From the NCBI GenBank assembly GCA_964016885.1, contig OZ024740.1, positions 179,490,001-179,554,000 of the forward strand: a stretch of 64,000 nucleotides of DNA, written 5' to 3'. The notes under the pieces are model-generated. The model saw nothing but the letters and a program-made list of their open reading frames with translations. It was not told where the DNA came from and made no database searches. The stretch comes from Eledone cirrhosa (lineage: Eukaryota). This document shows, piece by piece, positions 2,234 through 58,301 of the stretch (the stretch's first letter is position 1; the number at the start of each line of letters is the position of its first letter). Both the position numbers and the translations under genes were made by a program.

Positions 2234-2612
2234 TGTATATATATATTTATTAAAATAACAGATTAAAGTTTAAGCAAAGAATCGCTGCTTTCACCCTTAA
2301 CGGGCTTCTGAAACTAACAAAGTCAATCTGTAAACTCAGAAGTGGATATTTCAAAAAACGTTGCAACCGGAGAAAGACAGGAAGACGATACTTTGGTTCG
2401 TAGAAACGCTCCCTGGCAAAGAACGGGTAAAAACGAATATAATACGTCATTAATAGGAGCGGTGAAAAACAATTACACGCAAAGACAGAACCACGTTTAT
2501 GGTTTATGGTATAGAAGAAGTCGTAGGATATTGTTCTCTTAGGTGGTTCAATGAACGGAGAAAACGAAGATAATACGTCCTCGGTTGAGCACTCTATTGA
2601 CTTATATTCATC

Positions 2613-4735
2613 ATGCAGAAACAACATCTGAATATTTCTGCAAAGAACATACCCGTACCAAGCAGGAAATCATACCTAAACTCCTGATACAGAAAACAGA
2701 CACGTTCATTAAAAGGTTGCGTTGGCGTGCCTTTTATTTCGATAATCCGCAAAAAGCTGACAACAAGCAAGATAAATTTGGGTTTAAAACCTATAATAAC
2801 CCTCCGTGTAACCCAGCATTGCTACCCTTTGAAAATGATGTCTTGGAACTCATACGGAGTATCAAATTTAGGAATAGGAGCAATTCCTTCCAGCAGGATC
2901 TGAAGAATAGAATTCGTTCTATTAAGGATTCTAATGCCGTGCACGTCCATTCCGACAAAACTGGCAACCTATATCAAGTGGAGCGCAGTACTTACCATCA
3001 ACTGCTACATAATGCTTTAACTAAGGATTACCGTAAAACTAATCGGTGCGTCATCAATGAAATCAACGATGCTGGTTTTAAAATCACCGCTGATCTTAAC
3101 ATCCTGGCCCGGCCCGAACCTCTGGACACTATTTCTCCCCACTTTACCCTGAAGGATCACAAATCCAATTTTCCGAACAACCCCTCTATTCGGCTTATTA
3201 ACCCTACGAAGAACGATTTAGGTAGACTTAGGAAAAGGATTCTTGATAGAATTATACCTGAAATTAGAAGTTTGGCCCCTCTTGCACTGTGGAACAATTC
3301 TTTCGCGGTGATTGATTGGTTCAACGGTATATGCAACAATGAACATTGCCGTTTTATCTAATTCGACATCAATAATTTTAACACCTCCATCACTTTACCA
3401 CTTCTCCTTAGAGCTATCAATTTCGCTAAAACACTCACAGTGGTTAAGGATTTCGAAGTTGATGTCATCATCAATGCCCGTAAGTCGGTGATTAATTTCG
3501 ACGACTCTATTTGGATTAAAAAAACCAATAGTACCCCATTCGACGTGAGTATGGGCGCCAGCGATTCTGCGGAGGTTACTGATCTTATCGGCCTTTTCCT
3601 TCTTTTCTCTATCAAAGACGAATTCCCCAACGCGGGCGGTGGTTTGTACCGTGATGATGGTCTTTTGACCATGACTAAGTACGGCCCTCGTGCTTGCGAC
3701 AGGTTCAGAAAAGAACTCACGGCCTTCTTTAAAGGCTTCAACCTCTCTATACAGGTTGAGGCCAACCTCTCGGTCGTTAATTACCTCGCCGTTACCCTCA
3801 ATTTATCGAATGGCTTTTATTACCCGTATAGAAAGCCGAATGATACGCTTAATTATATAAGTAAGCATTCCAACCATCTTGCCAGTATAACCAAGATCAT
3901 GGAAAGAAACGTTTCGTTGGGGCTTTCCCGTCTATCTACTAACGAGCATATTTTCAACGACCATTCCACTTATTACAATGAAGCTCTTGCTCGGAGTAGA
4001 TTTGTCGATAAGGTAGCATATACAGAGTGCGAGAATAGACTTAGAAGTAATAGATCCCGTCGCATTACATGGTATAACCCACCATATAATATGGAGGTGG
4101 CCACACCATTAGCTAAGATCTTTCTATCCCTTATTACGAAGAATTTTCCCCCTAAACATAAATAGAGTAAAACCTTTAATAGAAATACTATTAACATTTC
4201 TTACTCTACGACTCCTAACCTTGCACATAACATCATAACTTCAAATTTAGCTAAACTACCTAGACGTAGGAACACGTGCAACCCTGTAGTTAGTGCTAAC
4301 TGTAATTGTAGGAATCGGGCTGATTGCCCCCTATCCAGGAAATGTCTCTCTAGTAACATTGTCTACAAATGTAAGGTTGAAACACCCACGTCCCGTAGGG
4401 CCTACATAGGGTTAACCGCCAATAGATTCAAGCAGCGTCTTTAAATGCATACCCAGTCTTTTCGTTACCCTCTAAGAGAGGAATATGACGTCACTTTCAG
4501 CTTATATCTGGAGTCTAAATGACAACCACACCCAATATAAGTTACACTGGGAGATCCTAGCTTGAATCTAGATCGTATAACGGAAATAAAAGACCATGTG
4601 ACCTCTGCGCCGCTGAGGCCCTGGAAATACTCAACGCCACAGACCACATCTTAAACAAAAAATCTGAGGCAATTTCGACTTGTAAACATAAATTGCACAA
4701 AGCTCTCCTGTATTACAGCCCCACATTATACCCTA
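2613..4735 (+). pseudogene. PLE RT + GIY-YIG endonuclease, disrupted
   Basis: Starts MQKQHLNISAKNIPVPS, frameshifts into KLLIQKTDTFIKRLRWRA, then TLKDHK, IRLINP, FDVSMGASDSAE, GLYRDDGL, ITWYNPPY, CNCRNRADCPLSRKC, NIVY...AYIG. In-frame stops at 3359, 4163 and about 4442. Confidence 0.92.
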
Positions 4736-6245: not shown

Positions 6246-6342
6246 CAAAATTTATAAAACACACTTTGTATTTTATCTGATGAAAGCGTACCAATGCTTT
6301 TGGTACCCTTGAAATATATATTAATTTATAAAACACACTTTG

Positions 6343-6597: not shown

Positions 6598-9050
6598 ATG
6601 GAATTATTTAGGATTTCTTCTTCTCTAAAAGATGTACTCTTACCTAAAAATAAGGAATATCTAAAACAACTCATTGAGAAATCTGACTCCTTTATACGAA
6701 GACTTAGGTGGCGTGCCTTCCATTTCGTTAGAAAATCGGATGAAAAAAAAAAAAATCCAGTTACAACTTTGATCTTATCTTCAAATCTAAGAAGAATCCA
6801 CCTAGCAACAAACTATTAACTGAATTTGAAAATGAAGTAATATATTTTATACAAAACATTAAATTAAAAAAAAAAATGTATAGGCCAGGAATATCTTAAA
6901 GGCCTCAAAAATGATATAGACAATCTTGAAAAAACTAAGAAGATCCTCGTAAAATCTGATAAAACTAATAATTTATATGGAATGGAAAAGGACGAATATA
7001 ATAACCTTATATTGAAAGAACTCAGAAAAAACTACAAAATAACAACAAATGAAGATCTTTCAACGTTATTATTTCAGAGAAGCTTCTGAAATAATTCATA
7101 AATTAGGCATCCTAAATAGGACCGAACCCTTTATACCTAGAAAACCAAAAAATAACCTGAAAGACCACAAAAGAAAATTTGAAATAGAACTACCAGTCAG
7201 ACTCATAGCACCATCTAAATCAGACTTAGGCATAATTAGCAAACATATATTAGATATAATAGCGGTGGATTGGCAGTATCGGTAGAGGGTCGGACGCCAT
7301 GCTTTCCAGCATAGTTACGTCCCTTTACGATCTGAGTTCAAATCCCGCCGAGGTTGACTTTGCCTTTCATCCTTACGGGGTCGATAAAATAAAGTACCAG
7401 TAATGCACTGGGTAATTGCTGGCCTTGTGCCTAAAGTAGAAACATATATTAGATAGAATACCACAACATAAAGAAAAATCACACTTGAAACTAAGGAACG
7501 GTACTAATGAAATTATAGATTGGTTTAATAACATAAAATTAAAACATAACAAAAAATTCATTCAAATGGATATTGCAAATAACTACTCCTCTATTACTCC
7601 TAGCTTACTTAATAAGGCTCTTATCTACGCATCTAAACATACAGACCTCTCTAGTGATGAAATGAACATAATTCTAACGGCACGGAATACACTAACATAA
7701 TTCAATAATCATCTCTGGACAAGAGCCGACAGAAAAAACAATTTTGATATCACTATGAGATCATCTGACTCGGCGCAAATAACGGATCTTGATGGTTTAT
7801 TTATTAATAATGTACTGCATAGGAAAATGCCAGAGGTGACCGGTGGTTTATATCGTGACGATATGCTGCTTTTAATTGAAAACCATAGCAATTGTGAAAT
7901 TAATAGGAAAAGAAAATATATAATACAATTCTTCAATAACTACAACCTTAAGTTAGAAGTAGAGAATAACTACACAATCGTTAACTTCTTAGACGTAACC
8001 TTAAACCTTAGCACAGGTCTTTACTATCCTTTCCATAAAATTAACGAAAATCTAAATTACGTAAGTTTTAACTCTAATCATCCAAGAAGTATTAAAAACA
8101 CTATTGTCAATCATGTCCAACAACGGATTTCACGCATCTCTGGTAATAAAAATATTTTTGATGATAAGGCTGAATATTATAATGAAGCTTTAATTACAGC
8201 AGGATATTCGAATACAATTAAATACATTGATAACAATAACATGGCAAATCATGTATTAATTATAATAATAATAAACAATTTAACTTAAACACTAAACCAA
8301 ACCAAAATAACTAGAACTAGAAATATTATTTGGTACTCCCCCCCCCCCACATTATAATTAAGCGTTAAAACACCTTTAGCAAAGCTATTCTTTAAAACAC
8401 TAGATAAATGTTTTCCTAAAGCCCACAGATACCACTCTATTTTTAACAGGCATACTATAAAACTATCTTACTCTACTTCTATGAACATAGCACTATATAT
8501 AAATAGAATTAATAATAGAAACTTAAATTTAAACCCTAACCAAAATAACCAAAATAGCAATAATAATATTTCTAGCAATATCCAGTATAATAGTACCGTT
8601 CCGACAACAACAACTCCATAAAATGTAACTGTAGAATCAAATCAAACTGTCCTTTACAAAATAATTGTTTAGATAAAAACGTAGTTTATAAATGCACAGT
8701 TAAAACTAGAGATAAAATATTTAACTATGTTGGTGCCACTTCTACAAAATTTAAAGAACGCTGGAATAACCATAAACATACTTTTAAAAGATCTGATAAA
8801 AAATCTTCTAGTTCACTTTCACATCTTATATGGAACTTAAAAGGCAAGAATATAGACTATTCAATATCTTGGAAAACGATTTCGAAAGTACCTGCGTACT
8901 GGAATATGACTTTATCAAGATTCTGAAACTTGTGTATCAAAGAAATGTTTTATATAATTAACTGTCAAAACTCTATTAATCTAAGAACAGAGTTGTTTTC
9001 TTCTTGCAGACATAGCCAAAATTCCACGTTCAGAACTATGTTTGATTTAT
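6598..9050 (+). pseudogene. PLE RT + GIY-YIG endonuclease, disrupted and SINE-interrupted
   Basis: LIEKSDSFIRRLRWRA, NLKDHK, VRLIAPSKSDLG, FIQMDI, GLYRDDML, VNFLDVTLNL, IIWY, CNCRIKSNCPLQNNC, NVVY...NYVG in shifting frames. Confidence 0.9.
7262..7443 (+). mobile_element. tRNA-derived SINE with Meta-type central domain, inserted in element 2
   Basis: A box TGGCAGTATCGG, B box GAGTTCAAATCC, central GCCGAGGTTGACTTTGCCTTTCATCC...GGTCGATAAAATAAAGTACC. AAACATATATTAGATA is duplicated at 7241-7256 and 7440-7455 (TSD). Confidence 0.9.
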
Positions 9051-18758: not shown

Positions 18759-18886
18759 ATTATTGGTTGTGTCAAACGGTCCAATGAAATGTGTGTTAGC
18801 AATATTAAGTTCTCCACGCTTTTTGTATATCTCCAATTCCATTTATGGGAACAGCTAGATGATGTAAAACGGAGTATTTGTATTAA

Positions 18887-19232
18887 AATAAAGATCCGAA
18901 GGCATGGTATAAATTTCCAATCATTTTAATCACGACACATGTTTCAATAAGAGATAGATCGTTCGTGTAGCCATGATCGATTATCACTGAACTCGTCAGG
19001 TGAAAATGAATTTTCTCAAATCTATGATATGAGGCTGAAAATTAACGGTGTTCATTCACATGAGGGACTAAACTCTGTAAATGAACACCGTTAATTTTCT
19101 TATTCGTATCAAGTATTTTTCATCTGACGAGATCAGTGATAATCGATCATGGCTACACGATCGATCTATCTCTTATTGAAACATGTGTCGTGATTAAAAT
19201 GATTGGAAATTTATACCATGCCTTCGGATCTT

Positions 19233-19236
<4 letters not shown>
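18887..19236. repeat. 350-bp fold-back with a hammerhead in each arm
   Basis: The arms are reverse complements. Plus arm: CTGACGA 19124, long stem II, GAAA 19178, ACATGT palindromic stem III, GUC site at 19189. Mirror copy on the minus strand at about 18930-19005. Confidence 0.88.
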
Positions 19237-19307
<71 letters not shown>

Positions 19308-19316
19308 AAAAAAAGT

Positions 19317-19383
19317 AAGTCCTTCATCAGTGACCCTCCAACCGTCCCAGGCATTTCATCGCTTTAAGGGCCATATGCCTCAG
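19317..19383 (-). ncRNA. Permuted hammerhead, copy
   Basis: Reverse complement of 20548-20614. Confidence 0.8.
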
Positions 19384-20037
19384 GATGGTGCGAACAACGG
19401 CTAAAAAAAGTCGTTGGGACACGTAAATAAAGGAGACGTTAGGGTAACAAACAAAATGGTTTAAACAACGGAAAGTGAGAAGAAATAGACAAGTCCCAGA
19501 TCTCTATGAATATAAACTCGGTGAAATCGTGAACAAGAGACAAAAGACCATCAAACCTGGTTGAAATGTGAGCAAGGAAGGAATTTCGCACAGGTCTAAC
19601 GAGGGGGGGGGGGGGTGAAGAAGAAGAAGAAGAAGAAGAAGAAGAAGAAGAAGAAGAAGAAGAAGAAGAAGAAGGGGTCTGGTCTACGAATTCGGTAAAC
19701 ATAGGTTTTGTGAAGTCGCAGACGAAAGAGAGAGAGAGAAAAAAATTCCATATCAGCTTGACCAAGACCGCGCGAGAAAAGAATTACACACAGGTCAAAC
19801 TTGAAGGAGGAGGAGGAAAGAGGAGGAGGAGAGGTAGTGACAGAGAATGAGTGAGTGAAAGTTGAGGAGGAGGCTAACAGAGAGAGAGACTGCTAGAAAG
19901 GGTAAAAGGTACAAAGAACGAGAAAGGGTAAAAGGTACAAAGAACGAAACAGACGGGTGGCAGCAGAAGAAAAATTATGTGTAAATATGATAATAATGAT
20001 GGCTGCGCGTTGCAAATGGTGGTGCATATGAAAATGT

Positions 20038-20104
20038 AAGTCCTTCATCAGTGACCCTCCAACCGTCCCAGGCATTTCATCGCTTTAAGGGCCATATGCC
20101 TCAG
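20038..20104 (-). ncRNA. Permuted hammerhead, copy
   Basis: Reverse complement of 20548-20614. Confidence 0.8.
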
Positions 20105-20547
20105 GTTCGTGCGAACAACGGCTAAAAAAAGTCGTTGGGACACGTAAATAAACGGGACGTTAGGGTAACAAACAAAATGGTTTAAGCAACGGAAAGTGAG
20201 AAGAAATAGACAAGTCCCAGATCTCTATGAATATAAACTCGGTGAAATCGTGAACAAGAGACAAAAGACCATCAAACCTGGTTGAAATGTGAGCAAGGAA
20301 GGAATTTCGCACAGATCTAACGGGGGGGAGGAGAAAAAGTAGAAGAAGAAGAAGAAGAAGAAGAAGGTGAAGAAGAAGAAGAAGAAGAAGAAGAAGAAGA
20401 AGAAGAAGAAGAAGAAGAAGAAGAATGAGATCTGGGACTTGTCTATTTCTTCTCACTTTCTGTTGCTTAAACCATTTTGTTTGTTACCCTAACGTCCCCT
20501 TTATTTACGTGTCCCAACGACTTTTTTTAGCCGTTGTTCGCACCAAC

Positions 20548-20614
20548 CTGAGGCATATGGCCCTTAAAGCGATGAAATGCCTGGGACGGTTGGAGGGTCA
20601 CTGATGAAGGACTT
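20548..20614 (+). ncRNA. Hammerhead ribozyme with non-circularly permuted strand order
   Basis: AGGCAT-A^-TGGCCCTT-AAAGCGA-T-GAAA-TGCCT-GGGACGGTTG-GAGGGTCA-CTGATGA-A. Stem III 6 bp, stem I 8 bp, full core, A10.1-U11.1. Confidence 0.8.
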
Positions 20615-21280
20615 ACTTTTTCATATGCACCACCATTTGCAACGCGCAGCCATCATTATTATCATATTTACACATAATTTTTCTTCTGCTGCCACCCGTC
20701 TGTTTCGTTCTTTGTACCTTTTACTCTTTCTCGTTCTTTGTACCTTTTACCCTTTCTAGCAGTCTCTCTCTCTCTGTTAGCTTCCTCCTCAACTTTCACT
20801 CACTCATTCTCTGTCACTACCTCTCCTCCTCCTCTTTCCTCCTCCTCCTTCAAGTTTGACCTGTGTGTAGTTCTTTTCTCGCGCGGTCTTGGTCAAGCTG
20901 GTATGGAATTTTTTTCTCTCTCTCTCTTTCGTCTGCGACTTCACAAAACTTATGTTTACCGAATTCGTAGACCAGACCCCTTCTTCTTCTTCTTCTTCTT
21001 CTTCTTCTTCTTCTTCTTCTTCTTCTTCTTCTTCTTCTTCTTCTTCTTCACCCCCCCCCCCCCGTTAGACCTGTGCGAAATTCCTTCCTTGCTCACATTT
21101 CAACCAGGTTTGATGGTCTTTTGTCTCTTGTTCACGATTTCACCGAGTTTATATTCATAGAGATCTGGGACTTGTCTATTTCTTCTCACTTTCCGTTGCT
21201 TAAACCATTTTGTTTGTTACCCTAACGTCCCCTTTATTTACGTGTCCCAACGACTTTTTTTAGCCGTTGTTCGCACCAAC

Positions 21281-21347
21281 CTGAGGCATATGGCCCTTAA
21301 AGCGATGAAATGCCTGGGACGGTTGGAGGGTCACTGATGAAGGACTT
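21281..21347 (+). ncRNA. Permuted hammerhead, copy
   Basis: Identical to 20548-20614. Predicted cleavage after 21290. Confidence 0.8.
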
Positions 21348-21460
21348 ACTTTTTCATATGCACCACCATTTGCAACGCGCAGCCATCATTATTATCATAT
21401 ATATATATATATATATATATATAACTTATAAGAAGAAAGCAAGAACGCTGAGGAGTTTTC

Positions 21461-26251: not shown

Positions 26252-29200
26252 AGGGCGGGTAAAGTTCCCGAGATCCTTGGACAAGTTCTCTCCAGCGGTC
26301 TCTGTCCCTCATCATCGCCGCCATGTCCTGCGTCTCCAAGAGACCCGCGTATGTCCTTAGGTCATCAACATATGTCAACCTCAGTCTCCCTAATCCACTG
26401 TGTCCATGCAGGGGGCTCCCACAGGAGCACTGAGTGCAATGTCAACTCTGGATGTCGTTGAGCATCTAACCTCAGCCTCCTCTGTGCTACTCTCAAGCTG
26501 ACGTTTGGGATGCTCTCGTACAGCTCAGAGTTTTTTATCCTCAGTCTATACTGTTTAATGTTCACAGCCATCCTCAACATTCTCGTGTAGCACCCATCCA
26601 CCATCTGACTGAGTTTCTTGGTCAGTGTCCAAGTATCAGACCCGTACAGCAGCACATATCCCACTACAGCAACGAAGAGACGGATCATCAGGTCTTTATG
26701 AAGGTCCGACTTCCACACCGATCTCAAATTGTGGCATGCCACCCAGGCTTTGCTCTTCCTCTCGATCACATCCTCTTCTGTATTCCCAATCTTTGCTCTC
26801 GCTTACATTCATAATATTCTCTGGCTTCTTAATATTTTCTACCAGATACTTCGTCTTAATCTCATTCATTCTCAGCCCCACACTCATCGACACCGTCTCA
26901 ACCTCCTGCATCAACTCCTCTGTCTCCTTCCCTGTGTTTGTGACCAGAACTATGATGTCGGCAAATTCAGCATCCGATATCTTTTTTCGCCTTAACTCTC
27001 CTGCTCTGAGCCAGTGCTACAGTAAAGGCCGAGTGCTGGTGTTTCTTCAGCGCAAGTCGCATACAATGGTCCACTGCAATGATAAAAAGGTAGGTAGCCA
27101 ATGTCTCTCCCTGGAGCACTCCAGCCATTATCTCAAAGAACTCCGTCATCCCATCTGGTGTAATGTCTTGGGCTTTGGTGTTGGTGTAGAGCAGTGATAT
27201 CAGGTCCACTATCTTCTTGGGGATTCCACAAGCCTGTAAGATCTTCAGGCAGTGACGGTCCACATAATCAAAGGCCCTCCTAAAGTCAATGAAAACCATG
27301 ACTGCAGGAAGGCTCTTTGCTCTAGCTCCCTCTAATATCCTTTTCAGCATCAGGATGTGACTGATGGTTGATCCTCTCTCCCTGAAGCCGTTATTGTTGT
27401 CCCACAGCTTCTTTTCCACCTCAGGATGTATCCTGTTAAGAATCATCCTGTTGAGGGTCTTTGCCACAATTGACGTCAGTAAGATCTCCCTGTAATTTTT
27501 GTTGTCAGAGAGATCTCCCATCTTCGGTACTGGGACGATGTTACTGATCCTCTACTGATTCAGGCAACTACTTACTCCAGTGCCTGGTTACATAACCCCA
27601 GGATGATATCATCACACATTTTCATCACCTCTGATGCCAGACCATCTCCATAACCTTTGCTCTCCTTGATCTTCTTGGCTCTATGAAGCTCCTCTCTGGT
27701 GAAGGGTCCTGTCTCATTATTCAGTACCTCAAACATCCGCCTGATCTCCCCAGTGCTCTGGGCTATGGAAGGCGGCTCTCCCAGTAGGGTTCTAAAATGG
27801 TCCAGCCATTTCCTCTGCCTATCCTCGGGCCCTGTTCGCTGGATCTGACTCGAACACCTCTTCCTCCTTATGATCTCGTTGATGATCATCCAGCTCTCCT
27901 TACACACAGACGTGTCAACCGCTCCCTCCGCACTTCTGATCTTCTCTATCAGCGCCTCCTCTCTGGCCTCAGTGTTAGCGGTACAGAGTTCTTCACTCAT
28001 CACCTCCATATTCGTCTCCTCCGTATTATCAGCATAGAATTGGTTCTTGGCAGCTTTCAAATGTTCTCTGGCTGCACACACTTTTGGGTCTGCAGAGCTG
28101 ACGTGATTTCTCTTCTTCGCTCTCCTCTGCACCAGGCCTTCACTTGCTTCCGCCACTGCATTGGCGAAGTACCCGTATCTCCTCGTCACACCCTCCTCAG
28201 TCCCTCCAAACCTTCTCTCCTCTGCCTCTCTACACAGAGCACTGAGCCTGTTCCTCACTTCTACTGTGAACCTCTCCTGTAGCTTATCATCTTCATTGAA
28301 AGCTCCCCAATCATAAATTGCTCTCCGAAGTGTTGCCTTGTTCTTTCTTAAGCTCACCTGGACCTCACTCATAACAAGCCGGTGGTCACTGCACAGTGTA
28401 CTGAAATAGTTGTATGGTTCTGTGTTCAGGACACTATACCGTCACTTTTTCCTCACCAGAATGAAATCAATCTGGGACTTGGACAGGTGCATATCTGAGA
28501 TGTAGGTCCACATCTTCCCTGGATTCTTCCTAAACCTTATGTTGGTTACCATCAATTTCACCTTCAGCGAGGTGTCTATCAGTAGTCTTCCATTTCGGTT
28601 GGTGTTGTTATGGAAGTAAGGATATTCACTGCCCTCCTTACTCAGATGTCCCCCAGAACAAGCAGGATGTTGTGTGCTTTTGTGGTGTTGACAGATCTAC
28701 ACACCTATTCATGGAACTCATGGGCACTCACGGCACTGTATCCTTCGGTTGGACTATAGGCTGAGATGACTGTCAGTCTTGGGTTTCCATTGAATATCAC
28801 CCTCAACACTCGCGGGGAGACAGGTATGATTTCCCTCACCAAGAGATTGGTTTTTGCACTGAAAACAAAACCCACTCCTCCTATTGCAGCATTCGTCGTG
28901 TTCCTCATTGCTGATGTGGTGATGATCTGACTCCTCTTCACAATCATCACTCTCGTCACGGGCTCATCGTGTAGGATCCTATGTTCTTGGATCGCAAGTA
29001 TCTGCATACCACTCTCCTCCAACATATTACCCAACTGCTCTCTCTTCTCCAGCGTCCGAACAGTCCTCACATTCAGCGTGCCAATTTGAATGGCTTTTCT
29101 GCAGGACAAAACTGGATTCTATATATTTGTCCCAGAGACAGCTGATTCCCCATTCACTGGCCCTCCATGTGGCTCTAAACTAGCCGTTAAATCGAATCTC

Positions 29201-35889: not shown

Positions 35890-37961
35890 TAGGAAACTTA
35901 ATCCAGTTAAAAAGTAGATGCGATTTCAGATGCGAACAACATCTGAAATCTCGGTCTTAGAATTGAGGCAAGTGGAAGGGGCATTCAAGTTTTGGATAAT
36001 TCTAAATTTTTCCGTAGTGCACAAAGAACATTTCTTTGTGCCCCTTTGGTATTCGCTTGAATGGTCTAAAATAGACCAATCAATAGTATACGGAATGTTT
36101 TTGTCTTTAAATTCCCACACTTTATTTGCCAGCGCCGTTGCTGTTCTTTTATCAGGGTGTCTGAAAGAAGCGACAAGTGCATAATATCTGATTTTGAATC
36201 TGTCCTGAGTCATGCTAACATATCGTTCACACCTGGCTGACTGGTTTTTAATCATCGGTGTCAATTTGGCCTCATACACAATGGATTTGGTATTACATTT
36301 ACCCTGTAATGGGCATTCTTCCGGCTTCCTGCAACTACATCTCGGATCCACTCTCGTACGATTATAGTTGGTAATTTTAGTCTTCATTGATGGGCAGCAA
36401 GAGTAACTGATTTTGACTATGATTAGGGGAAAAATGTTTGTCTAGGAGGTCGAGGAATTTTCTTCCTACGTTAGTTTTAACAGTTAGAGAGAAGGGGGTG
36501 TAAACCAAATAATTTTTCTTTTCCTATTTTTGTGTTTAGTGTTAGAGAGAGGAGTAGGCAAATATTTAATATGTTCGGTGAAACCGCTGTTACGGACGGC
36601 TTTATTATAATAAGGGGCGCCTTTGTTAAAAATGTCTATAGACGAAGATAGGGTAGACATCCTACGGCTAATGTTAGGAATAAGATTTATAAAAACTATA
36701 GGCTGATGGCAAGACTCTTTATGTATATATCTTAAATTCTCGTTCGGTTTATAAGGTTTAAAAGAGGCAGTAAGTAGATCAAGATTAATATCAAGAAAGT
36801 TAGTATTAGTAAGATTCGTATCTATAGTAATTTTAAGGTTTATTAATTAAATCTTTACGGAATTTATCAAGGTATGGCCGTTGGTGGTATGAGAAACTGC
36901 CAAGCCATCGTCTCGGTATAAACCGATATTATGGCACGGAAATTTCTCTTTAAGGGTGTGAAGGAGGAATGATCATACTAAGTCACACACATCAGCACTA
37001 TCATATGAGCCCATCACAACATCAAAAGAGTTTTCAGGGCTTGATTTTTTTGCCCAAATACGTTCATTAGCAAAGAGTAGTGTTTTCCTAGCATGAAAGA
37101 TAACGTCTTCTAATTTAGAAATATTAATGAAAAGTCTTGCAAATCTAAGGCTATTATTAATAAGGATTCAGTGATAGAGGGATAAAAATCAACAATATCA
37201 AATTGGGTAAATCTACACTTTTTAAATTGGGTAAATCTACATTTTTACCTTGTATAATATTAAACCAAGAAATAACAGAGGATGTATTTAACCATTGTAA
37301 TACGTCAGTCATAATTCTTATTTGAAGTATTATTTTTCTTAAGATTTTTTTACTCGCAAGGCCAACTTCAGATTTAGCAGGGTTAATTAGTCTACAGCTA
37401 GGTCGATTAGTAAAGTCTGATTTATGGTCTTTAAAGTTAATATATTATTTACGTTTAGCTAGGCTTTCAATCCGGTTATCTATTTTTAAAATACTAACTA
37501 GGTCTTTAGCTTCATTGTTAATGGTATTGTAGGTATTAATGTTAGCTATTCGATATTTGGCGGTAACGCTATCAGTTAAACGTTGGTTATACGAAATATT
37601 ATTTACTTCAAAGAGATTTTTAGTTTTATCAGAGAAAACGAAAGTGTTTGTAGAGTGTTTAACATTAGAAATATCGTTAGAGAGTTTTGATTGAAAGTTA
37701 TTGTTGTACTTACGGTATTTAGTTTCACTAATTAAGATCTATTTCGAAGTTGGCCATGTCTTTAACTCTAGGTGGGTATTTGTGGGATTTAATGTCAAAG
37801 AAGTCATTGGAATCAGCACAGAATTTTCCGTCGTAAATCATGGCCTTCCATCTCATTCTTTTAATGACTTGTTCAATTTTATCGATAAGCATTTTGGTGT
37901 AGGTTGTGTTGGAACGAGTAGGTATATTTTTGATAGAATAATCCAATTCATAAACGTCCAT
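35890..37961 (-). pseudogene. PLE RT + GIY-YIG endonuclease, disrupted
   Basis: MDVYELDYSIKNIP...IKRMRWKA, CRLINPAKSEVG, QFDIVDFYP, FDVVMGSYDSADVCDL, GLYRDDGL, CSCRKPEECPLQGKC, SIVY, KKCSLCTTEK. Confidence 0.92.
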
Positions 37962-57361: not shown

Positions 57362-57827
57362 ATATATATATATATGGAAAAAGTGAAATTTCATTTCTCA
57401 CTCATAGTACGGCTGATACTTAAATATAAGTATGTATAGGTAGATACATATATGTATACAGACGCACACTAGTATGTATATACATACATACATGCACACA
57501 TATATGTATGTACGTATGGGTTTACCGAACATTTATTATAATACTCGGTTTGTTTTAAACAAACAGCCCGAATTAGTAGCCGTACAGTGTTCAGCAACCA
57601 TCGTGATCCTTTTGTTCAAATCTGACTAAGGAACGATGAATTAGTTTCTAGCTTATCAGCATCGCATACCTTCCTGATTTAACGTTTGAAAGTAAATGCT
57701 TTACTTATGCATATTAACGGCTGAACAGCCTAATTTGCATATCGAGTGAGTTAGTCGGCCGGGTCTACCGAAAATGATAAATGGAAAAAAAATTAAATTT
57801 CATTTCTCACTTATATATATATAAATA

Positions 57828-57885
<58 letters not shown>

Positions 57886-57888
<3 letters not shown>

Positions 57889-58301
57889 CGGGTAAAATTC
57901 CCGAGATCCATGGGCGAGTTCTTTCCAGCGGTCTCTGTCCCTCATTATCGCTGGCATGTCGTGCGTCTCCAACAGACCAGTGTCTGTCCTTAGGGCATCA
58001 ACATACGTTAACCTTGGTCTCCCTCTTCCAGTGTGTCCATGTAGGGGCTCCCACAGTAGCACTGAGTGCAATGTCAACTTTGGATGTCGGTGAGAATGTC
58101 CAGCTAAGCTCAATCTCCTCTGTGCCACTCTTGAGATGACTTTTGGGGGGCTCCCGTACAGCTCTAAGTTTTTCATCCTCACTGTATACTGTTTAATGTT
58201 CAGAGCCATCCTCAGCATTCTCGTGTAGCACCCATCCACCATCTGAGTGAGTTTCTTGGTCAGTGTTCAAGTCTCAGAACCGTACAGCAGCACAGACTCC
58301 A
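57886..58301 (-). mobile_element. 3' fragment of the RTE family at 26252
   Basis: DGCYTRMLRMALN...GHTGRGRPRLTYVD; same 3' end CCCGCCC followed by (TA)n. Confidence 0.9.

Follow-up and report, generated by a model that had tools for sequence, protein, structure and literature searches.

The stretch of DNA analysed here, referred to as the window, comprises 64,000 nucleotides from Eledone cirrhosa. Positions 19305 to 21409 are occupied by a single insertion of a non-coding retroelement of about 720 bp, arranged as two arrays back to back. The minus-strand array (19305-20425) contains a full unit (19305-20025) and a 5'-truncated unit (20026-20425), and the plus-strand array (20427-21409) contains a 5'-truncated unit (20427-20676) followed by a full unit (20677-21409), the full units being 721 or 733 bp long. 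The outer (3') ends of both arrays pass into (TA)n; judging from the array-end positions, the 3' tail and (AT)n target on the plus strand lie at 21348-21423. The sole open frame of more than 120 codons in the unit is of low complexity, and no tRNA head was found in the ∼720-bp unit. An inverted repeat with 123-nt arms, 97% complementary, adjoins the insertion at positions 18884-19239.

A preliminary description of this DNA had reported a complete hammerhead ribozyme with scrambled strand order, in four identical copies of 67 nt located at 20548-20614 and 21281-21347 on the plus strand and at 20038-20104 and 19317-19383 on the minus strand. All its letters and coordinates were found in the sequence as described, and the four copies are indeed identical, although they are not independent because they are units of one young repeat. 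A 39-nt core gave four matches in the window and none in 100 shuffles. The predicted ribozyme is longer than those 67 nt, forming a unit of 102 nt that spans positions 20511 to 20612 approximately (copy 1, plus strand). Copy 2 (21244-21345, plus strand) is identical to it, and copies 3 (20040-20141) and 4 (19319-19420), both on the minus strand, each differ from copy 1 by one change, located in the helix named P0 below.

All the letters of the hammerhead core (C3-U4-G5-A6-N7-G8-A9, G12-A13-A14, A15.1-U16.1, and H17) are present in the motif. On the plus strand, U11.1 and G12-A13-A14-A15.1 are read at 20573-20577, and C3-U4-G5-A6-U7-G8-A9 plus A20608 at 20601-20608. By analogy with the hammerhead core, cleavage is predicted between 20557 (H17) and 20558 in copy 1, after 21290 in copy 2, and at 20095/20094 and 19374/19373 in the minus-strand copies, the predicted cuts being 733 nt apart for copies 1 and 2 and 721 nt apart for copies 3 and 4. 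Among relatives, H17 is A, C, or U. Of 83 copies, 60 could form a pair at position 11.1, either Watson-Crick or wobble, with the base after CUGAnGA and 23 with the leader base, and 21 have a suitable partner in neither. The window family has U/A at this position rather than the common C/G.

The letters thus confirm a full hammerhead core in the non-circularly permuted order cleavage > GAAA > CUGAUGA. The cyclic order CUGAnGA > GAAA > cleavage site of types I, II, and III is not the order of this motif, which follows instead the block order S > G > C of type SGC. This is the arrangement published by Eckert et al. in 2023 (PMC10085705), and the preliminary description was therefore correct in stating that natural non-circular permutations had been reported. 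The proposal that the fold is pseudoknotted was likewise supported. Standard descriptors do miss it, Rfam giving no matches at gathering scores over the whole window, and the motif also fails the published SGC search patterns. The latter, as given in the parts covered, demand CGAAA, CUGAUGAG or CUGAUGAUG, with the stem II strand right behind; that is, C before GAAA and G or UG after CUGAUGA (PMC10085705). The search of Eckert et al. included RefSeq 85 (PMC10085705), and failure on these patterns may explain why the fold is absent from the report of that search.

To describe the fold, an alignment (A1) of 34 cluster representatives with a median identity of 64% was used. It derives from 209 anchored hits, reduced to 140 distinct ones, to 88 with the U-H in register, to 83, and finally to 34 clusters; five rows were dropped beforehand as (TA)n-truncated, and families with different spacing lie outside A1. 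Conservation of the core and of the bulge GA in this alignment is by construction, because most patterns demanded those letters, and only the protein-anchored and literature cases described below are free of that bias. Pairings, on the other hand, proved to be conserved over the genomic copies, as 82% of 888 cells were paired compared with 37 to 47% in six slid controls. Two-sided changes were found in 24 of the 27 model pairs. None of 500 shuffles scored as high as the model, although these controls are inflated by copy kinship. In an unguided ranking of 2,775 column pairs, 10 of 22 model pairs fell within the top 38, and pair 20554-20579 ranked first; some non-pairing columns linked by descent also reached the top.

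The three helices around the core (I, II, and III) all covary, with stem II split over two strands. Stem III pairs 20552-20556, ending in U16.1, with 20577-20581 (90% paired), and stem I pairs 20558-20563 with 20595-20600 (91% paired, with two-sided change in six of six pairs). These helices had been given as 6 and 8 bp, respectively. Their 5-bp and 6-bp portions stand, and we restrict the stems to them because the additional pairs (20551-20582 in stem III and the seventh pair of stem I) are each kept in only 12 of the 34 divergent copies; the last U-G of the claimed 8-bp stem I is near-constant, but its G also belongs to P0. A conserved 5-nt linker, UUAAW (20564-20568), leads from stem I to stem II and is similar in the LINE copies described below.

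Judged from sequence comparison, the motif has a genuine stem II that was overlooked in the preliminary description, where a 1-bp stem II and a 7-nt crossover had been proposed. Four of those seven nucleotides (20569-20572) pair with a leader strand at 20538-20541 (79 to 84% paired), and the pair 20538-20572 shows two-sided change in 12 of 32 rows. Thus, the stem II strand does not lie directly behind CUGAnGA, as it would in an intact block C, but in the 5' leader. Four of 34 rows show a swap from U-A to A-U at position 11.1. Nor does the crossover appear to replace the usual loop I-loop II contact, since a separate clamp helix, P0, adjoins strands of both stems I and II. This helix joins 20543-20548 to 20588-20593 (87% paired over five pairs and 76% at the sixth) and covaries, with up to 12 two-sided changes per pair. 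The bases behind A20608 are engaged elsewhere; 20609-20612 pair with 20511-20514 in a closing helix that is paired in 78% of 131 cells and shows two-sided change in four of four pairs, although it is weaker against its nearest slides (the next best reached 68%). Between both leader strands lies a variable 5-bp hairpin (20516-20535), 63% paired in A1 and missing from one family, in which four pairs have a pair probability of 0.94. Single-sequence folding of the motif was unremarkable (z = 0.0), and energy folding, with a program unable to form pseudoknots, favored a competing fold for stems I and II.

The strand opposite the foot of stem III, 20582-20587, consists of a 3-nt bulge, G, A, and one further base, and faces a short strand at 20549-20551 recognized by its letter pattern. 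In the kink-turn consensus, two helices flank a 3-nt bulge with G.A and A.G pairs after it. A bulge plus GA, facing a short strand whose last base is A, would fit this consensus, and we therefore refer to the loop as kink-turn-like. Bulge and GA were also present in copies found by searches that did not demand them. In the small families the bulge partner is A in 80% of cases, and the second partner is G in 30% or U in 46%. GA-GA occurs in the window and in three metagenome contigs introduced below (L237, L331, and L286), one LINE family has AA, and the bulge GA is absent from a squid Naiad consensus.

Taken together, six helices covary, and the fold would correspond to the published SGC ring with a different opening, placed within block C. 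Stems I, II, and III would meet at the usual core, and stem III (5 bp) would continue through the kink-turn-like loop into P0. Bending at this loop could return the strand from the stem III base to the stem I and stem II tips, where the far ends of these two stems and of P0 would form a second three-way junction in place of the usual loop I-loop II contact. The RNA ends would then exit via the helix inserted right behind CUGAUGA-N.

Type SGC (HRIMA-1 and SGC variants), in the parts of the source covered, shares with the window motif the order cleavage site > GAAA > CUGAnGA with a full core, a short stem I-stem II linker, a clamp helix on stems I and II, and a monomeric pseudoknotted fold (PMC10085705). 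The published RNAs, which have the same core connectivity, cleave in vitro at 0.007 to 0.19 per minute (PMC10085705). However, published SGC motifs start at stem III and carry the stem II and clamp strands behind CUGAnGA (PMC10085705), whereas in the window motif these strands lie at the 5' end, joined to stem III via the kink-turn-like loop, and the ends exit through an extra helix after CUGAnGA-N. Eckert et al. assume that CUGAnGA is inseparable from its stem II strand (PMC10085705); the window motif indicates, against that assumption, that the two are separable. Type CSG, represented by two metagenome sequences (PMC10085705), has the same cyclic block order with the ring opened elsewhere, but its block C is intact and it lacks the kink-turn arm. 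According to the parts of the paper covered, the published SGC types do not come from genomes of known organisms (PMC10085705).

The small element is abundant. A 34-nt core gave 960 exact matches in genome G000 (3.0 Gb) compared with none for the reversed pattern; among the matches listed, some stood alone, others formed small clusters, and one run reached about 20 units (G000:C1:132609150-132621786); in this run, units at ∼630-bp spacing are followed by an inverted copy. The window family is young, its 40 best copies being 99 to 100% alike over 201 nt. The preliminary description had proposed to search genomes with a descriptor of this strand order, and such a search, with patterns excluding the window family, revealed many sister families in G000 (1,888 matches versus 49 for the reversed pattern). 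In a second organism, dealt with in a separate study (contigs), a sister-family version shows paired changes at 20554/20579 and 20563/20595. A six-copy family matched by the first pattern (L031 and kin) was rejected as a chance match that sits inside an RT frame.

Units of the small element span about 360 to 730 bp, and most arrays contain two or more copies of the motif. In 30 loci (L001-L030), picked with a query crossing a unit boundary, the 3' ends were fixed and the 5' ends variable. Arrays ended 14 to 16 nt behind CUGAUGA in 8 of the 27 distinct ends and 52 to 69 nt behind it in the other 19, in all cases at (TA)n. This pair of 3' ends, separated by ∼45 nt, is reminiscent of the Penelope "tail" described in the parts of PMC11167929 covered. 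When 5'-truncated copies were inspected by eye, the 5' part was replaced within a 5-nt window at the cut site in 39 copies, ten bases downstream in 37, and six bases upstream in 9. The corresponding numbers of junctions exactly at the first base were 16, 8, and 2, under a rule set post hoc; with two control windows only, and with AT microhomology to the target as a confounder, these counts lean towards the cut site but do not clearly point to it. Five truncated copies have a C between the AT-rich flank and the base after the predicted cut, reflecting either untemplated addition or a C17 subfamily. In addition, five fold-back copies (L098, L109, L129, L069, and L094) carry overlapping motifs on opposite strands, resulting in near-palindromes.

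The same fold was found outside this element. A blind scan of metagenome contigs, with a pattern of unpaired letters only, returned at least 119 stretches, and 110 distinct hits among the matches listed could be scored. All 21 predicted pairs were present at fixed offsets in L237 and L331, and 18 of 21 in L286; the remaining 107 listed hits had 3 to 14. The motifs of L237 and L286 sit behind the end of a restriction-like-endonuclease ORF, and the proteins related to L286 bear an RT; many of them carry names from fish, one a name from amphioxus. A search of G000 with the L237 protein, which is blind to RNA, gave 45 matches among 150 scored of 14,383 candidates. The complete fold was present just behind the stop codon in six of the eight best LINE loci and was damaged in the other two, the catalytic core being kept in six of eight copies. 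These fold-bearing LINEs, which we take to be HERO-like, have other letters than the small element, a 5-bp stem II closed by G-C, and a closing helix and a hairpin of 8 bp each. Eighteen further protein matches comprised seven to eight members of a second family with a decayed fold, one partial case, and nine without the fold. Eight restriction-like-endonuclease loci of other families, presumably R4-like, and L373 lack the motif. In a short endonuclease tree, five of six motif-bearing fragments stood apart from three motif-less families, while L237 lay near the latter.

HERO-like LINEs and the small element thus share the fold, and in some LINE copies the 3' end lies next to (TA)n, as it does in the small element, but their letters and tails differ, and no body shared between the LINEs and the 720-bp unit was found. 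The HERO-like copies examined are 87 to 96% alike and older than the window family. In one of eight loci, examined with limited flanks, a 5'-truncated LINE copy and a full-length one were joined head to tail, the latter running out in (TA)n. This partial tandem (L355, L379, and L359; G000:C2:317449089-317455888) has two predicted ribozymes 3.6 kb apart and no spacer, the same anatomy as that of the small element. Some HERO families target microsatellites, according to the portion of PMC4640811 covered.

Naiads, a second kind of retrotransposon, gave similar results. In the parts of Craig et al. 2021 covered (PMC8557442), no canonical hammerhead is reported for these elements, core and half-core cases are flagged, and the fold described here is not mentioned. 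The last 300 to 400 nt of 41 Naiad consensus sequences in its supplement were read by eye. Two consensus 3' ends, both from octopus, carry the whole fold, and one of these had been flagged "HHR_half_core" (PMC8557442). In a squid consensus the clamp and stems I and III are present but the GA is missing, and six nematode consensus 3' ends have the CSG order with a long clamp helix; neither fold was noticed by eye in the other 32 of 41. Bivalve and hemichordate Naiads display a different conserved 3'-end motif without CUGAnGA, common to about nine families, which could be another structured RNA. In the parts of PMC8557442 covered, Naiads resemble the small element in their partial tandems, inverted 5'-truncated copies, optional tail, and (TA)n target, a Penelope-like anatomy with a microsatellite target that the window element displays without the Naiad ORF.

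Searches of G000 turned up no intact Naiad. Neither of the two matches to a short Naiad RT pattern was intact, and two protein searches with the endonuclease domain gave no clear N-terminal-endonuclease protein. The GIY-YIG matches in G000 (30 loci, and 20 long-frame stretches among 150 scored) belonged in every case to Penelope elements with a C-terminal endonuclease, whose stop codon is not followed by the fold. Seven of these elements (L174, L175, L177, L170, L173, L096, and L181) have canonical-order cores behind the stop codon, and therefore both strand orders coexist in G000. No autonomous element with the body or tail of the small element was found in G000. Two candidate partners were rejected: a 5.2-kb motif-bearing tandem, with no ORF inside the unit, and the L191 family, with no RT frame joined to the motif in ten copies. 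Some letters that flank the core in the L191 family recur in octopus Naiad 3' ends.

Our preferred reading, to which we assign a probability of roughly 70%, is that each unit of this non-coding retroelement carries one predicted SGC-order hammerhead, which likely folds within one unit and likely cuts tandem transcripts to unit-length RNAs, which would then be circularized and copied into (TA)n by a borrowed RT. The ribozyme unit would fold alone, and a transcript over two units would be cut twice, after 20557 and its equivalent, giving a 733-nt monomer. A ligase, probably of the host, would then close the monomer into a circle, which is the route suggested for animal retrozymes in the parts of PMC7229834 covered. 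The RT would be primed at the (TA)n target, start 14 to 16 or 52 to 69 nt behind the core, and run more than once round the circle, and such copying from two start sites would produce arrays exactly like those observed, with a fixed 3' end, a variable 5' end, and in many cases two or more units. A HERO-like LINE or a Naiad Penelope-like element probably supplies the enzyme, because both bear the same fold at their 3' ends. The Penelope-like anatomy and the octopus consensus sequences point to a Naiad, and the fold in LINEs of G000 together with one partial tandem points to a HERO-like partner.

Non-LTR retrozymes, in the parts of the sources covered (Cervera and de la Pena 2020, PMC7229834; Li et al. 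2026, 10.64898/2026.07.22.740005), are likewise non-coding tandems with one hammerhead per unit, non-autonomous, and with a proposed circular RNA stage. Their hammerheads are of type I in canonical order and were found with type I patterns, whereas the window element has the permuted fold and thus differs from them in the type of its hammerhead.

An alternative that we regard as unlikely is that the fold is real but serves mainly as a structure for 3' recognition or priming by the RT, cleavage being slow, a mere nick in paired RNA, or dispensable. The distance of the motif from the 3' end is at most about 100 to 150 nt in small elements, LINEs, and Naiads alike, and the cut fragments would remain joined by about 19 predicted bp in stem III, P0, stem II, and the closing helix. 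Furthermore, hammerhead mutations did not stop insertion by one Penelope protein in vitro, as described in the parts of PMC11167929 covered. However, the catalytic letters and the U-H triplet are kept in LINE and Naiad copies that were found without asking for them, while the helix letters differ throughout; this disfavors a binding site, which alone would not need catalytic letters.

The preliminary description had suggested that the CUGAUGA strand could come from the neighboring unit, making a dimer or multimer necessary for cleavage. Most arrays do hold two or more copies, minimal Penelope hammerheads have been proposed to act as dimers (PMC4209133, parts covered), and covariation is blind to whether pairs form within a molecule or by strand swapping between two. 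But every helix can close, and covaries, inside a single 102-nt unit, the long stem III is no palindrome, and the full fold persists in LINE copies that have one motif in the stretch examined, all of which makes the need for a neighboring unit improbable. We consider it just as improbable that the window family is a decayed, inactive descendant of a ribozyme working only in the LINE or Naiad versions. Such decay would agree with the stem II of the LINE, Naiad, and two metagenome versions, which has 5 to 6 bp and is G-C closed beside the core, compared with 4 bp plus an A-U from another strand in the window family and no pair there in one large sister family. Against it, the window family is young and numerous, and its sister families keep compensatory changes in every helix, pointing to selection inside the small families. 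A coincidental grouping of short motifs, multiplied by a repeat, would agree with the four copies being a single repeat and with a count of 1,888 versus 49 that reflects copy number, but covariation, the blind metagenome hits, and the fold in protein-anchored LINEs have already refuted it in practice.

The preferred reading, a ribozyme acting within the unit, would place non-circular hammerhead permutations, hitherto known from uncultured RNAs and metagenome contigs without host or role, in animal retroelements, where they are predicted in thousands of copies. The same design stands at the 3' end of two unrelated kinds of retrotransposon, offers a structure for the "half core" signals unexplained in Naiads, possibly answers the question of the partial-tandem insertion of some retroelements, and adds a predicted natural kink-turn-braced hammerhead. 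What appears to be new is not the strand order, which had been described before, but the splitting of block C, the kink-turn-like arm, and the occurrence in retroelements. Full-text searches, covering few subscription journals and no Repbase Reports, found no paper that locates an SGC or CSG hammerhead in an animal genome, a Naiad, or a HERO element, nor any on a ribozyme in HERO elements; no natural kink-turn-braced hammerhead was found by title and start of abstract. A wider proposal, which we hold tentatively and with slightly more doubt than belief, is that hammerheads of the SGC/CSG ring are a regular ribozyme at the 3' end of animal retrotransposons, present in fish and invertebrate HERO-like LINEs, in Naiads, and in their non-autonomous derivatives by the thousands, which no descriptor has picked up. 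The split-block form with its kink-turn clamp would then be a fourth opening of the ring, possibly switched by a kink-turn-binding protein, and even a LINE would have a circular RNA stage, explaining the partial tandems.

The window contains other repeats. Four canonical-order minimal type I hammerhead-like motifs, with a long stem II and TATA at stem III, lie at positions 6277, 6351, 10188, and 13083 of the plus strand and are probably ends of Penelope-like elements. Broken Penelope-like frames with RT and endonuclease, presumably of the Hydra-like clade, were found at 2555-4165 and 7701-8288 on the plus strand and at 35926-36846 on the minus strand; a Pfam search of the first two pieces gave no significant hit. 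A broken LINE with endonuclease- and RT-like frames, which we take to be RTE-like, occupies 26365-29118 and 57811-58266 on the minus strand.
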